A stretch of 64,000 nt of DNA from positions 10,104 to 74,103 of the forward strand of contig JACCUI010000284.1 of assembly GCA_013811945.1 (NCBI GenBank). The letters are read 5' to 3'. This stretch comes from Pyrinomonadaceae bacterium (GTDB lineage: Bacteria; Acidobacteriota; Blastocatellia; Pyrinomonadales; Pyrinomonadaceae). Shown here one piece after another: positions 12,424-16,593 of this stretch (the first letter of the stretch is position 1; every line of letters starts with the position of its first letter). Below the pieces are notes generated by a model. That model made no database searches and was not told the origin of the DNA. It saw nothing but the letters and a program-made list of their open reading frames with translations. A program made the translations under genes and the position numbers.

Positions 12424-14307
12424 CTACTCAAACTGGAACACAACGGTTAGGCCAGTTTGGAACCACTTAAAACGGTCCTTGTTTTCAGTGGCGAAACTAA
12501 ACCCACCTCCAACTTCACCTAGAATCTGGAGCGAAGCCTGCCGGCCAATACGGAAATTCAATCCTGCGGTGACGCCTCCTGCGGCGTACGGCTGCGTCTG
12601 CTCACCGCCTGTTTCACCCGCAACGCTAAGACGCCCGCCCTCAACGTACGCTCCGTAAACTGAGCCAAAGCGCCAAGGTCGATACCGAGTGTTGAGGGCC
12701 GCTCGCACGCCGAGCAGGTACGCTGCTCGATCTTTTGAATCGGTGGGTGCGAAGCGAAGATATCGGCCTCCCAGCGCCAATTCCCAATCGTGCATTCGCG
12801 TGAGTGGGAACAGGAAATCAAGCCCGAGACCGGCCGTGGCGTAGTTCCCCCCGGTTAGGCCGCGCGCGTACCCTCCAAAAAGGGAGAGATTGAAGAAAAC
12901 ATTCGTCGAACAATTGAGATGTAGCCTGCCTCGATCCAAAGCGGGCAGCGGTCGCGTGTTAGGCACACAATTAATATCCTCGGGCCCTGTGATTGGGAGG
13001 CCCGCATGTTCCGAAGCAAACGCGTTGTAGCACTCTGCAGTGTCGAAGCCCCCGGGGAGCTCATCGTTCAAGCCGCGAGTCGAAAACACGTAGTGAGACC
13101 ATTCATGAAGCAGCGTTAAGGCCTGCTGATCTGGCCCAGCAGTCCAGAAACTTGAACAGAGATCGATTTTCTGACCGCCGAATGGTCCTATGTGGGCAAC
13201 GCCGAGAGATGTGTTGCACAACGTCGACGGCTCGCCCGCGGCAACACACGAGTACTCCATTTCTGTATTGCGAATCTCTCTTGCAATACGGGCGAAGCGA
13301 TCGCCAATCTCAGGCAGGAAGCGGCAACGCGTTAGCTGATCGTTGTAATCGAGTCGGAAACGTCTCCAGACGAGTGCCCGAGTGGGCTCAGCCAAGGGAC
13401 TGGCACGCACCGCCGCCGCTGCCTGCTCGGCAAAGTTCGCGGCCTCGTTCTCCCTCGCGCTCACGTCAGCTGCGCTGCGACCGGCGACGGCTCGGCAAGG
13501 TAAGTGAGCGTTGTCGTCAACGACCTTACGCTGCAACTGCGGGCTGGTTCCTGACGCGGCAAGGAAAAGAGAAGGGCTCTCACTCCGATTGACGTGCCTA
13601 ACACTGTGCCCACCTGACTGTTGGACCACGTGCGTTAACTCATGCGCAACCAGACGATTTCCCGCAGGCGTTCCCGGTGTAAACTGGCCTGCACCGAAAA
13701 CAATGTTCTGCCCCACTGTGTAGGAACGTGCATTCACTTCTTGAGCCGACTGCGTGGCGGCAGGACCGGAATACACGCGCACTGCGGAAAAGTCTCGGTT
13801 GAACCGCGGCTCCATGTTGTTGCGGATCGATAAGTCCAAGGGACGGCTCGGACCAGCAAGGGCACGATCTACACTGGATGTAACCGGACGCGCAGCGTTA
13901 GACGTTTTATTTGCGACACGCTGAATTTGCGGTGTTCCTTTACCAACCGTCGCAGTGCCAGGCGCTGCCATTACTTGGTTTGCCACACGATCAGCTTCCT
14001 GTTCATAACGGTCGCCCGGCTCGCTGACCGCGAATTTGGCCTGGACGATTCCCTTTTGTTTGCATTTTTCGCAGTCTGTGCCTGAACCATCGCACGCGCA
14101 TTTGCGTTGCAGCAACGGTCGCTTCACTTCGCTTAGCCCCGCCGTTACCCTATTGGCCTGCCCCCTGAATTTGCCGCTCGTCTCGCTTAGCTTCCTCATC
14201 ACCGTGTGATTGCCGGCAAAGCCCCGCCCACTAGTCACGCCCCTTCGCGCTGCCAAACCGACCAGCGCGCCGGCAGACTTGACTACATGTTGGCTTTTCA
14301 CGCTCAT
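12424..14307 (-). CDS. DUF4157 protein 2 with an M35/aspzincin-like HExxH module and a C-terminal OMP-like beta-barrel domain
   Basis: The ORF-track start at 14334 is a GTG directly abutting the upstream stop. The ATG at 14307 gives MSVKSQHVVK, matching the paralog leaders. Contains LLQRKCACDGSGTDCEKC, YEQEADRVA...FSAVRVYSG...LVAHELTHVVQQ, then IDLCSSFW...TLLHEWSHYVF. The last ~160 aa have alternating strands and end in VVFQFE. Confidence 0.8.
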   Translation of the reverse strand: MSVKSQHVVKSAGALVGLAARRGVTSGRGFAGNHTVMRKLSETSGKFRGQANRVTAGLSEVKRPLLQRKCACDGSGTDCEKCKQKGIVQAKFAVSEPGDRYEQEADRVANQVMAAPGTATVGKGTPQIQRVANKTSNAARPVTSSVDRALAGPSRPLDLSIRNNMEPRFNRDFSAVRVYSGPAATQSAQEVNARSYTVGQNIVFGAGQFTPGTPAGNRLVAHELTHVVQQSGGHSVRHVNRSESPSLFLAASGTSPQLQRKVVDDNAHLPCRAVAGRSAADVSARENEAANFAEQAAAAVRASPLAEPTRALVWRRFRLDYNDQLTRCRFLPEIGDRFARIAREIRNTEMEYSCVAAGEPSTLCNTSLGVAHIGPFGGQKIDLCSSFWTAGPDQQALTLLHEWSHYVFSTRGLNDELPGGFDTAECYNAFASEHAGLPITGPEDINCVPNTRPLPALDRGRLHLNCSTNVFFNLSLFGGYARGLTGGNYATAGLGLDFLFPLTRMHDWELALGGRYLRFAPTDSKDRAAYLLGVRAALNTRYRPWRFGSVYGAYVEGGRLSVAGETGGEQTQPYAAGGVTAGLNFRIGRQASLQILGEVGGGFSFATENKDRFKWFQTGLTVVFQFE

Positions 14308-14334
14308 TAGGCTTTCCAGATTTTCAAACTGCAC

Positions 14335-16593
14335 TTAGAAACGTTTACTGAAGAACACGTCAACAAGATGCGTACGCTGCTTATCGCCATCCAGCCGTTT
14401 CCATTCTTCCCACCCGATACCAAGGCGAAGCGAGCGGTTTTTTCCAAAGGCCCATCCTGCTTCCAGGCCCCCGCCCACTTCAATTGACGTAAACCACTCG
14501 CTACGGATTCCTCCCTTACCGGTCAAAAACAATGACATTTCCTTAAAGGGATCAAAACTTGCGCCTACTCCAGCGGAGATGGCGCCTGTTCCAATTCCCG
14601 TATAAACAAAAGGCTGCAACTTGCCATCCAGCAAGGTGGGAAGAAGCTTTCGGAATTCAAGTTCAAGCCCTGGCTTCTTCTCGTCGCCGAGTTCTAGAGT
14701 GAGTTTTGGAAGCAGCTCAAAACGAGGAGAAGGAGCTTGGCTTTCTTTAGGGGCATCATGAGTCGGGATCACCTTGGGGTCATATATCAGTGTAGTTTTC
14801 TCGGTTTCATCCAGCGGCGTATCCGGATCATCCTTCGTCTCCGGCCGCTTCCGGTTCTCCGCTGCGTACTGGAACAGCTTTCTTGCGTAGTCGACCCAAC
14901 CGTCCGCGTCACTGAATGCTCCCATCACCGTATTTCGCGTTTCAAACTTCACGAGGCCAGTGTCCTTTTCGCCCTTTTTGGCCTCCACGTCGTATTTGCC
15001 CATGGCGGCACTGACACCTGAGCCACTCTGCACTGACAGCAAATCCTTACCGCTGTGAATACCTGCCAGCCATTTGTACACGGTGGGACCAGCGTGATGT
15101 TGCTTCATTCCATACCCCTTAATGAAGAATGGGGTTTTTCGATCCAGCCCGAGCTGCTTCAGGATCAGATCTTTTTGTACTATCTTTTTGAAAAGGCTTT
15201 GTTGCTTTTCGGTCATCAGCAGAGTCTGATAGATCGAAGAGAAGTCGGTTCGGTTCATCAGGATAAACGCCTGCTTCGCAGCCTTGCCCTTAACATCGGC
15301 GAATGCTCCAGTGCTGGCGCTTGCCGTCGCGCCCTGCCCTCGCATGATGTAATTGACGATTATTTGTAGAAAGCTGCGCAAATTGACTAATTCCGTTGCG
15401 GGAATGCCTCCACTGTTAGCGGCATCCAGGATCGTCTGAGCGCTGGCGATGACGGGTTCTCTGTATGCCGGAAACTCGTGTTGTTTGAGCAGAGACTCAT
15501 ACTGTTCCAGCAAAATGCCTTCTGAGGATTGAATGCCTGCATTCCATTTGTCATCGACTATTTCGACCTCCAGCTTCTCTTCTTTCCCAAGAATTTTTTC
15601 CTTCCCTCCTTCCATTCCTGGTTTTTTGTCCCAGAAGCCTTTTTTCAGTTCCTGAGGTGAGCCTTTTCTCAGATCATCCACGGGAAACGGGAACGCCTTC
15701 CGTCCTCCCTCGGCAGCCGGTGCCCCATTCATCTTCGTGGTCATTTCACGTGCTTCTTTTAACTGCTTTTCCAGTGCAGACCATTTACGAAACCAGTCCG
15801 TTTCAAATTCGAGCACCCCGTTGGTCTCGGACTCCAATCTCACACCCGTAGCACCTTTGACCAGGAAATCACTGGGACCATACTTCCGATCCAGCAGGGT
15901 CGGAGGGTTTACGCCATCATTTCGCCAAATCTTGTTAAATGTCTGGATCTCAAACTTCATCTCCCGTTGAATCGTCGCTGGCCTGCTATGCGAGGTTGGC
16001 GGAGCAGCAGGAAAGGTGCTGGGACCTTCGTGATTGACGGCGTTTTGATTGAAGGAACGACCCACCGCTTTTGCCCCCATTAGGTCGGCTTCTCGCTCGA
16101 GGCTTCTATCATCATTAATCGACTTCCCCTTTGCCTGAATCGTGGGGGTCACACGCCCCTGCATCTGCTGCACTGCATGCCAGCCCTCGTGAGGTAAATG
16201 CCGTTCCTGACCCGGAGCGAGGTGGATTTCCTGTCCTTCGGTATAGGCCCACGCATTCAGTTGGTCTGGTTTTGAGGAGTTTCTATGAACGCGTATACCC
16301 GAGAGATCCCTTCCCGAGAGCGTTTCCAGGCCGGCCTTCAACTGACGCGGCATCCCGGTACGGTTTTCGACTTCACGCCGATCATCCTGGAGTGGCTGAT
16401 CCATTACATTGCGTTGCAGCGTCGCACCCTTCTCTTTCCTTTGCAGTCGAGGCTGAGTTTCGTCGGTCTCCCGGCCCTTTCTCACTAACGTGTGATTGCC
16501 TGCAAAACCACGCACCGGGGTTAACGCACCCGAAGATATGGGCGAGCGCATCCCGATGGCCGGCTTTGTGACGTGTTGGCTTTTCACGCTCAT
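14335..16593 (-). CDS. DUF4157 protein 1 with a ~400-aa unknown central domain and a C-terminal beta-rich domain
   Basis: 752 aa. ATGA overlap with the upstream 78-aa gene. Leader MSVKSQHVTK...FAGNHTLVRK. DUF4157 core LSGIRVHRNS...HLPHEGWHAVQQ...LEREADLMG. The C-terminus ends in VDVFFSKRF. Confidence 0.8.
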   Translation of the reverse strand: MSVKSQHVTKPAIGMRSPISSGALTPVRGFAGNHTLVRKGRETDETQPRLQRKEKGATLQRNVMDQPLQDDRREVENRTGMPRQLKAGLETLSGRDLSGIRVHRNSSKPDQLNAWAYTEGQEIHLAPGQERHLPHEGWHAVQQMQGRVTPTIQAKGKSINDDRSLEREADLMGAKAVGRSFNQNAVNHEGPSTFPAAPPTSHSRPATIQREMKFEIQTFNKIWRNDGVNPPTLLDRKYGPSDFLVKGATGVRLESETNGVLEFETDWFRKWSALEKQLKEAREMTTKMNGAPAAEGGRKAFPFPVDDLRKGSPQELKKGFWDKKPGMEGGKEKILGKEEKLEVEIVDDKWNAGIQSSEGILLEQYESLLKQHEFPAYREPVIASAQTILDAANSGGIPATELVNLRSFLQIIVNYIMRGQGATASASTGAFADVKGKAAKQAFILMNRTDFSSIYQTLLMTEKQQSLFKKIVQKDLILKQLGLDRKTPFFIKGYGMKQHHAGPTVYKWLAGIHSGKDLLSVQSGSGVSAAMGKYDVEAKKGEKDTGLVKFETRNTVMGAFSDADGWVDYARKLFQYAAENRKRPETKDDPDTPLDETEKTTLIYDPKVIPTHDAPKESQAPSPRFELLPKLTLELGDEKKPGLELEFRKLLPTLLDGKLQPFVYTGIGTGAISAGVGASFDPFKEMSLFLTGKGGIRSEWFTSIEVGGGLEAGWAFGKNRSLRLGIGWEEWKRLDGDKQRTHLVDVFFSKRF

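Follow-up and report, generated by a model that had tools for sequence, protein, structure and literature searches.

The window analyzed here is a stretch of 64,000 nucleotides from a Pyrinomonadaceae bacterium (assembly GCA_013811945.1, contig JACCUI010000284.1, positions 10,104 to 74,103 of the forward strand). It carries on its minus strand a complete operon for an extracellular contractile injection system (eCIS), and two of the genes in this operon encode proteins, protein 1 (p1) and protein 2 (p2), that end in tails predicted to fold as beta-barrels of the kind found in outer membrane proteins (OMPs). A sequence-only reading of the same DNA had placed both tailed proteins in an injection-system operon. 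A Pfam scan of the open reading frames (ORFs) in the window bears this out: p1 and p2 lie amid the eCIS genes, and the AAA+ ATPase gene stands directly upstream of three cargo genes with DUF4157 (eCIS_core) domains, those for p1, p2 and a third protein, p3. The parts of the operon are as follows; identifications are from Pfam except where stated.

22341-24764, minus strand: sheath protein
21817-22323, minus strand: gp19-type tube protein
20992-21810, minus strand: T4_baseplate-like protein
18927-20222, minus strand: Pvc16_N protein
16816-18930, minus strand: AAA+ ATPase with a winged-helix domain (AAA, 101.5 bits; winged helix, 47.1 bits)
14335-16593, minus strand: p1, eCIS_core, 752 amino acids
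12424-14334, minus strand: p2, eCIS_core, 636 amino acids
10723-12405, minus strand: p3, eCIS_core, 560 amino acids, with the same leader, HEQGH in its C-terminal domain (CTD) and no barrel (Pfam, alignment A2 and motif positions)
9994-10716, minus strand: CIS_tube protein
8633-9691, minus strand: GPD protein
8059-8631, minus strand: Phage_base_V spike protein
7364-7918, minus strand: gp25 protein
2353-7361: two baseplate-wedge proteins (PHROGs)

Within the cargo proteins we distinguish the following segments, all on the minus strand, with residues numbered from the start of each ORF as listed above.

16470-16593: leader of p1 (alignment A2)
16156-16353: divergent eCIS_core/DUF4157 domain of p1, residues 81-146, with HEGWH (PF13699)
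14824-15981: middle module of p1, residues ~205-590, about 390 amino acids
14338-14724: C-terminal beta-barrel-like domain of p1, residues 624-752, 8 predicted strands, ending ...FFSKRF
14185-14307: leader of p2 (alignment A2)
13609-13842: eCIS_core/DUF4157 domain of p2, residues 165-242, with HELTH at 231-235 (PF13699)
12955-13527: aspzincin-like metalloprotease domain of p2, residues ~270-460 (Pfam, PDB sequence matches and alignment A7)
12898-12954: linker before the barrel of p2, residues 461-479, with invariant Cys475 and PxPALD (alignments A3 and A7)
12427-12897: predicted C-terminal 8-stranded OMP-like beta-barrel of p2, residues 480-636 (AlphaFold2 and Foldseek)
12280-12405: leader of p3 (alignment A2)

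The tail of p2 was modeled with AlphaFold2 (AF2) from a 53-sequence alignment (A3). The prediction had a predicted local distance difference test score (pLDDT) of 93.8 and a predicted template-modeling score (pTM) of 0.84, and all five models reached a pLDDT of at least 93.2. The model is an up-down barrel of 8 strands, each 12-18 residues long and joined by short connections, with strands at residues 480-491, 497-510, 517-530, 538-551, 557-572, 578-595, 600-613 and 623-635. The likeness to an 8-stranded outer membrane barrel that had been noticed in the sequence is thus upheld by a confident structure prediction, in which no soluble sandwich, low-confidence fold or other non-membrane fold was seen. 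All of the peptides that had been quoted as strands are present in the translations of p1 and p2; the list for p2 contained seven strands and missed the first, FFNLSLFGGYAR (residues 480-491).

Searches with Foldseek place the predicted p2 barrel among the OMPs. The top 50 matches in the PDB are all outer membrane barrels (among them NspA, the OmpA transmembrane domain, OmpW, Ail, OprF, OmpX and PagL), with NspA matching at E=1e-6 and template-modeling (TM) scores of 0.62/0.69. Autotransporter barrels appear in this list only with low TM scores (0.29-0.40). Among viral models (BFVD), the matches are to phage-encoded OMP barrels.

The conservation pattern of the family points the same way. The inward and outward faces of the p2 strands were assigned from the family conservation profile rather than from coordinates. 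In all 8 strands one face is hydrophobic and variable (mean Kyte-Doolittle hydropathy +0.9 to +2.2), and the opposite face is conserved and rich in glycine or charged residues (-0.3 to -1.3). On the conserved face of the profile G107 is invariant, and conservation reaches 90% or more at G28, G44, G62, G82, R84, G86, E105, G127 and G168. In a soluble barrel the hydrophobic core is the conserved part, whereas in OmpA and OmpX small residues and salt bridges fill the lumen. The pattern seen in p2 and its relatives is the reverse of that expected of a soluble barrel, because it is the polar and glycine-rich face that is conserved and the hydrophobic face that varies; the conserved face, with its near-invariant R84 and E105, apparently corresponds to a filled lumen. 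The connections also differ between the two ends of the barrel. Turns on the side of the termini are of fixed length and conserved (PLxRxRxW, RPWRFG/TPSSGG), with 5-6 residues in T1 and 3-6 in T2 (median 5). Loops on the far side vary, from 1 to 13 residues in L3 and from 6 to 21 in L4. OMPs follow the same rule, with tight turns at the periplasmic end and outer loops that vary.

The last strand of the family has the consensus W-F-R-[AL]-G-L-x-[AL]-G-x-[RE]-F-COOH, with hydrophobic residues at positions -1, -3, -5, -7 and -9. The C-terminal residue is aromatic in 43 of 64 family members and is Phe in 40 of them. For comparison, the Escherichia coli proteins OmpX, OmpA (transmembrane domain) and OmpW end in ...AGVGYRF, ...LGVSYRF and ...SAGYRF, respectively. 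The aromatic-x-aromatic terminus that had been described for p2 is present as F-Q-F; one Glu follows it, which leaves the aromatic residue at position -2.

Alternation of hydropathy along single sequences exceeds that of shuffled sequences in both tails (z=2.0 for p2 and 2.6 for p1), and true OMPs gave comparable values (OmpA, 2.7; OmpW, 2.8; OmpX, 1.4). This statistic is weak and non-specific, as the CTD of p3, which has no evident barrel, gave z=2.9. The strong evidence for the p2 barrel is the family profile together with the structure prediction and the fold search, not the alternation statistic.

Two other kinds of barrel were considered and rejected. An enzymatic barrel such as PagL or PagP would be expected to show an invariant Ser/His set; none was found, and R84 and E105 are the only near-invariant polar residues. 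A beta-pore-forming toxin of the aerolysin, alpha-haemolysin or actinoporin type was rejected because a complete single-chain barrel is predicted and no pore-forming toxin occurs among the fold matches (an actinoporin match had E=0.39).

The p2 tail belongs to a sequence family that has not been curated. A word-indexed homologue search found only 2 relatives for each of the two tails, p2 and p1. A profile built from the p2 relatives was then searched exhaustively against 1.84 billion representative sequences and gave 77 matches, of which approximately 65, each a representative at 50% identity, are genuine family members. The remaining 12 were discarded as spurious, being SH3 or TPR repeat proteins with multiple matching stretches. 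In nearly all members the p2-type domain forms the extreme end of a protein of about 570-650 amino acids that carries DUF4157 (HELxH) and a second HExxH motif, which reads HEWxH in the subfamily of p2 and mostly HEGGH in other members. The eCIS_core domain was found in 34 of the 45 longer members, and the remainder are truncated at the N-terminus. A number of short matches (155-240 amino acids) might have been free-standing secreted OMPs. We rejected this possibility and regard them as fragments at contig edges, because they begin inside the upstream protease domain and have no signal peptide. The plasmid collection gave no match. A scan of genomes with alignment A1 gave no confirmed match, and a scan with alignment A6 gave two loci in metagenome-assembled genomes (MAGs).

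A profile scan of the p2 tail gave no Pfam or NCBIfam match, and no Pfam model covers the family. Weak matches among the relatives are to outer membrane barrel families only (OMP_b-brl, Autotransporter, DUF3996, DUF2715, Legionella_OMP, DUF3575 and YadA_anchor). The best of these are OMP_b-brl at E=7e-4, for one relative, and Autotransporter at E=4e-3; p2 of the window itself has none. Alignment of the family profile to E. coli OmpX and OmpW with hhalign gave a probability below 1%, and for this reason we claim only a likeness to OmpX and OmpW at the level of the fold.

The tail of p1 was modeled from a 10-sequence alignment (A4). The best AF2 model has 8 strands, a pLDDT of 76.1 and a pTM of 0.66. 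The pLDDT values of the five models were 76, 71, 46, 35 and 35, so that two of them are confident and three are poor; the low confidence that would have spoken against a barrel is only weakly approached here. Foldseek matched the best model to designed transmembrane barrels (E=2.6e-4), followed by TamA, OmpW and NspA (TM 0.55), and six of the 8 strands are clearly amphipathic. The p1-tail family has approximately 10 members with 44-71% identity, and all but one end in Phe, the exception having one extra Lys after the Phe. The only Pfam or NCBIfam match of the p1 tail is to DUF7840 (E=0.003, 17.6 bits against a gathering score of 27), a family that a literature search found mentioned in no paper. 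The tails of p1 and p2 had been described as similar. This holds for the predicted fold, at the lower confidence of the p1 model, and not for the sequences, which are not detectably related (BLASTP E>1; hhalign probability 1%).

Several points weigh against assigning the two tails to OMPs, and some of them would favor a domain that does not enter membranes at all, such as a soluble beta-barrel or sandwich with a binding, chaperone or inhibitor function, or a prediction biased by amphipathic strands. Sequence profiles link the p2 family to no OMP family at curated thresholds, and neither tail matches a curated OMP profile at threshold. The loops on the extracellular side of the p2 barrel are very short for a natural OMP. 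Members of the p2 subfamily often extend one residue past the aromatic position (FQFE, LQVK, LQIK), which weakens a strict reading of the terminus as a signal for BAM, the machinery of beta-barrel assembly, and p2 itself (FQF-E) conforms to the beta-signal only approximately. For p1, the model is moderately confident, with three of five predictions poor, and the last two strands are highly charged. The equally high alternation in the barrel-less CTD of p3 is likewise in keeping with a non-membrane domain. Against such a domain stand the conserved polar face and variable hydrophobic face, the lack of any soluble barrel among the top 50 PDB matches of the p2 tail, and the terminal strand, which reproduces the C-terminal motif of OMPs. 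At 12-18 residues the strands also exceed the length usual in soluble barrels. Taken on these grounds a non-membrane fold has little probability. The p2 tail is very probably a membrane barrel of the OMP type, judging from the models and the family profile, and for the p1 tail, where the model is weaker, such a barrel is somewhat more probable than not.

Upstream of its tail, p1 carries a middle module that matched nothing in Pfam or the PDB and is likely to be an uncharacterized effector domain. The module is widespread, with 65 homologues; in 37 of the 65 listed the match ends within 10 residues of the C-terminus, and the barrel tail follows it only in the small clade of approximately 10. 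Elsewhere DUF4157, a trypsin-like domain or a VanY domain stands ahead of the module. We considered whether the p1 barrel and peptidoglycan domains replace one another at a shared C-terminal position and rejected this, since the trypsin and VanY domains of the relatives lie N-terminal to the module. A single homologue, P0131, has a C-terminal extension with PG_binding_1 in place of the barrel. The region of the p1 gene (14001-16000) also differs in composition from its surroundings, with a G+C content of 0.519, compared to approximately 0.565 in the 2-kb windows on either side, and with GC and AT skews that are both strongly negative. These features would fit a Lys/Glu-rich and possibly recently acquired cargo gene.

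All three DUF4157 proteins have the marks of eCIS cargo. The eCIS_core model PF13699 (gathering score 22) matched p2 with 104.1 bits, p3 with 99.2 bits and the divergent domain of p1 with 35.2 bits. An N-terminal leader, MSVKSQHVxK...GFAGNHTLxRK, is common to p1, p2 and p3 (alignment A2) and is probably the cargo-loading signal of this eCIS. The motif GFAGNHTV also begins an otherwise unrelated metagenomic relative, P0015. The mechanically called p2 ORF begins with a GTG at 14334, immediately after the p1 stop codon. An ATG at 14307, with GGAAAG located 8 nucleotides upstream, yields the conserved MSVKSQHV leader. Because the leader common to the three proteins begins there, the true start is probably this ATG rather than the GTG, which would give a p2 of 627 amino acids. 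DUF4157 proteins of this kind, Cgo1 and Cgo2, are proven cargo of the tube lumen in AlgoCIS and leave the lumen upon contraction (PMC8894135). Loading of AlgoCIS requires an N-terminal domain (NTD) that is disordered and the AAA+ ATPase, and proteins with a stable fold are not taken in (bioRxiv 10.64898/2026.05.27.728243).

Between leader and DUF4157, p2 (residues 79-91, ~14060-14100), p3 (residues 60-74) and many relatives contain a four-cysteine motif, CxC...CxxC (RKCACDGSGTDCEKCK), which may be a zinc knuckle. The motif is not found in p1, which lacks cysteine altogether. The C-terminal half of p3 (10723-11565) has a second metalloprotease-like motif, HEQGH at residue 429, six cysteines, a weak match to DUF922 and a Pro/Thr-rich tail.

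Neither tailed protein appears to be exported through the Sec pathway. As a measure of signal peptides we used the best 10-residue hydrophobic stretch within the first 45 residues, which scored 0.84 for p1, 1.74 for p2 and 0.35 for p3, compared to 2.4-2.7 for E. coli OmpX, OmpA and OmpW. The absence of a Sec signal from p1 and p2, asserted from the sequence alone, is borne out by these scores. No signal-peptide-like stretch was found in the 34 full-length relatives of the p2-barrel family either (median 0.6, maximum 1.6). Since no relative with a signal peptide was found, its absence is a trait of the family and not the result of a miscalled start codon. In p2 more than 450 residues of cytosolic-type domains precede the barrel.

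These observations bear on a possible role of the barrel in the producing cell, such as fixing the protein or the particle to the cell's own outer membrane, aiding release, or maintaining the protease in an inactive or insoluble state before it is loaded. The window organism has an outer membrane, as judged from a secretin gene of the tight adherence (Tad) type at 48164-49801, and Geller et al. speculated that DUF4157-linked proteins may stay inactive in the producer (PMC8213781). The periplasm of the producer cannot be reached by Sec from proteins that have no signal peptide, however, and both the position of the genes and the common leader are those of cargo. In addition, one family member lies in the eCIS locus of an Anaerolineae (Chloroflexota) MAG; the binning of this MAG is uncertain. 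The Anaerolineae lineage is generally regarded as being without an outer membrane. A function on the producer's side is on balance improbable.

The domain that precedes the p2 barrel (residues ~270-460) appears, from its motifs and from weak but consistent matches, to be aspzincin-like. The Pfam family Aspzincin_M35 matches p2 with E=4.6e-5 and 24.3 bits, short of the gathering score (30), and is matched by 8 of 45 family members, the best with E=5e-10. Searches of PDB sequences gave peptidyl-Lys metalloendopeptidase (1G12, E=0.005) and the Aeromonas toxin AsaP1 (2X3A, E=0.01). The HEWSH motif at residues 410-414 (13093-13107) and D424 are invariant in the subfamily (alignment A7). Thus p2 resembles the aspzincins (M35) in H410, E411, H414 and D424 and in being rich in cysteine, and these relatives are extracellular; it differs from them in the position of the domain, which lies between DUF4157 and a predicted membrane barrel, as well as in its sub-threshold match. 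Alignment A7 also shows eight invariant cysteines in the p2 CTD, seven in the protease domain (280, 337, 363, 373, 393, 435 and 456) and Cys475 in the linker. These suggest disulfides and, as an inference, function in an oxidizing compartment.

As predicted, then, p2 consists of a leader, DUF4157, an aspzincin-like protease with disulfide-type cysteines, and a C-terminal barrel of the OmpA/OmpX/NspA type with an OMP-style signal. OMP barrels are unfolded in water, fold into bilayers without an energy source, and are recognized by BAM through a C-terminal signal. From this arrangement the following route can be proposed. With no membrane available in the producer cytosol, the barrel would remain unfolded, a state well suited for the adjacent AAA+ ATPase to thread it into the lumen of the tube. 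Contraction of the tail into a diderm target would set the cargo free in the envelope, where the barrel, coming from the periplasm, would enter the target outer membrane on its own or by way of the victim's BAM reading the C-terminal signal. The protease, attached at the end of the barrel where both termini lie, would fold oxidatively, be tethered to the outer membrane on its periplasmic side, and act there. In p1 a different effector module stands ahead of a barrel of unrelated sequence family, and it would probably work likewise. We tentatively favor this role for the barrel, that of a membrane anchor which folds on arrival and fixes the protease periplasmically to the outer membrane of the target, and hold it as a possibility somewhat short of even. 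Such a role would require a bacterial target and release of the cargo in its periplasm rather than its cytoplasm. Of the two roles offered from the sequence alone, a membrane-inserting or pore-forming effector and an anchor, the anatomy speaks for the second: an anchoring or targeting module is favored over a pore because the barrel has 8 strands in a single chain, its interior is apparently filled, and it accompanies a conserved protease-like domain.

The barrel might instead be toxic in itself, either by leaking ions in the cytoplasmic or outer membrane or by blocking BAM as a substrate that cannot be completed owing to its large N-terminal passenger. A membrane-type exterior and a beta-signal-like end would allow this. 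AlgoCIS Cgo1, a protein with DUF4157 and a second HExxH, has a toxicity in E. coli that is independent of both metalloprotease motifs (PMC8894135) and that would fit a non-enzymatic module if Cgo1 has such a tail. The features of the p2 barrel argue otherwise: 8 strands from a single chain, with inward glycines and the R84/E105 pair, point to a lumen filled as in OmpA and OmpX, and the only similarity to beta-pore-forming toxins is the insignificant actinoporin match given above. Moreover, a conserved HExxH domain, with H, E and H at least 90% conserved, precedes the barrel in the longer members examined, which argues that the protease is the payload. A toxic barrel thus seems unlikely.

Related genes elsewhere are informative about the likely target. 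All of the large related loci examined belong to eCISs, and members of the p2 family adjoin the eCIS AAA+ ATPase in three of those listed below (L011, L015 and L016).

L016, 734-kb contig: tube, Pvc16_N, AAA+ and a p2-family member, then a DUF4157 protein with YkuD, then baseplate genes
L015, metagenome contig: CIS_TMP, an OmpA-family gene, a p2-family member, three more DUF4157 genes and AAA+
L011, Anaerolineae MAG: AAA+, DUF4157 proteins and a p2-family member, then a protein with DUF4157 and OmpA (PF00691)
L006, metagenome contig: P0003, with a p1-type tail, beside Pvc16_N
L001, Pseudomonadota MAG: a p2 homologue with a frameshift; eCIS genes are absent within 9.8 kb

In L016 the protein adjoining the barrel-family member (12127-14589) combines DUF4157 with a YkuD L,D-transpeptidase and is another envelope-directed eCIS payload. 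In L011 (6108-8509 and 10609-12240) the barrel gene is followed by the gene for a DUF4157 protein with an OmpA-family peptidoglycan-binding domain, and a BsoBI-type restriction-modification pair lies between the eCIS cargo genes. L001 (2955-4800 and 5787-6692) contains the closest relative of p2 (65% identity in the barrel), which a frameshift divides in four MAG assemblies. A downstream ORF in the same locus has the same leader as this relative (MVMGLAFHT.DKSRLRS) and no DUF4157. The presence of co-cargo that binds or modifies peptidoglycan suggests that these systems aim at bacterial envelopes.

A eukaryotic target would call for a different route, in which a protist, fungus or invertebrate cell receives the cargo in its cytosol by injection and the barrel, taken up by the translocase (TOM) and by SAM (for sorting and assembly machinery), enters the mitochondrial outer membrane and brings the protease with it. 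Bacterial barrels made in the yeast cytosol, including the 8-stranded OmpA, do reach mitochondria and are assembled by SAM (PMC3430219), and PorB and Omp38 get to mitochondria during infection (PMC3430219, PMC3093317). The eCISs characterized so far act mostly on eukaryotic hosts (PMC8213781), and cargo without a signal peptide would enter the cytosol unfolded. In mammalian cells, however, OmpA, OmpC and PhoE are not targeted to mitochondria (PMC3430219). Insertion by SAM would leave the protease facing the intermembrane space and not the cytosol; the eight invariant cysteines of the CTD, seven of them in the protease, suit an oxidizing compartment better than a cytosolic face. The co-cargo of the related loci (OmpA-family, YkuD) is aimed at peptidoglycan. 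For these reasons we consider mitochondrial targeting unlikely and prefer the bacterial outer membrane as the site of the anchored protease.

In a wider form, which we consider slightly less probable than the anchor itself, contractile injection systems would transplant ready-to-fold OMPs with a genuine beta-signal into foreign membranes, and the victim's BAM (or mitochondrial SAM) would install the protease anchor or be jammed by it. If so, this would be the first OMP delivered between cells by injection instead of by Sec export, and a natural way to load intrinsically unfolded cargo that folds on arrival without an input of energy. That OMP barrels stay unfolded without a membrane matches the loading by eCISs of unfoldable cargo only. 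Cargo of this type would show that injectors can deliver integral beta-barrel membrane proteins, and it raises the question of whether a victim's BAM or SAM can be exploited from inside. The barrel module could in principle serve to tether engineered eCIS payloads to a target membrane. The p2-barrel domain itself, with its representatives fused almost exclusively to DUF4157 and an HExxH protease, is a family awaiting curation.

The p2 barrel shares with the small 8-stranded OMPs (NspA, the N-terminal domain of OmpA, OmpX/Ail and OmpW; Pfam clan MBB, OMP_b-brl PF13505) its predicted fold (TM 0.55-0.69), a hydrophobic lipid-facing belt around a Gly/charged interior, tight turns on the side of the termini with variable loops on the far side, and the C-terminal end of the family, ...G-x-x-G-[aromatic/aliphatic]-R-F. 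It differs from them in lacking a signal peptide, in having all loops short, and in being the last module of a multidomain eCIS cargo protein made in the cytosol. The type V autotransporters follow the same logic, with an N-terminal passenger, often a protease, and a C-terminal outer membrane barrel bearing a terminal aromatic signal, and the beta-domain of this class is the Autotransporter family that one p2 relative weakly matches (E=4e-3). The p2 barrel, in contrast, is built of 8 strands instead of 12, lacks a signal peptide, and is too narrow for passage of the passenger; its delivery would be into the envelope of another cell, whereas autotransporters are delivered into their own.

Among injection systems the closest parallel is AlgoCIS of Algoriphagus machipongonensis (PMC8894135). 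Cgo1 and Cgo2 have a leader or NTD, DUF4157 and a variable CTD, as does p2, and are encoded in an eCIS cluster with an AAA+ ATPase; Cgo1 also shares the second HExxH in its CTD, and loading into the lumen was shown experimentally for Cgo1 and Cgo2. No beta-barrel tail has been described for either protein, and the leaders are system-specific. The DUF4157-linked eCIS-associated toxins (EATs) resemble p2 in having an N-terminal DUF4157 and a C-terminal effector and in being encoded in eCIS operons (PMC8213781; PMC11297309). Many predicted EATs carry peptidoglycan-binding domains, so that action at the envelope is expected (PMC8213781, PMC11297309). The C-termini described for EATs differ from that of p2 in being enzymes (ADP-ribosyltransferases, deaminases, nucleases, peptidoglycan hydrolases and others), and the machine-learning paper on EATs by Danov et al. 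2024 (PMC11297309) uses none of the words "barrel", "porin" and "pore-forming". Full-text searches of the literature found no description of a beta-barrel or OMP-like cargo domain in an eCIS. The parts of p2, DUF4157 cargo and the 8-stranded OMP fold, are known; their combination and the delivery route that it implies appear to be undescribed. To our knowledge, the known payloads of eCISs and type VI secretion systems are soluble enzymes or helical membrane disruptors.

Elsewhere in the window, the secretin gene mentioned above forms part of a Tad/Flp pilus locus (35956-50744) that also includes a T2SSE ATPase (43273-44718) and TadE/G-like and VWA proteins. Two activators of the sigma-54 enhancer-binding type are encoded at 25493-26878 and 58731-60284. 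One of them, located immediately upstream of the gene for the eCIS sheath, is a candidate for regulating the operon.

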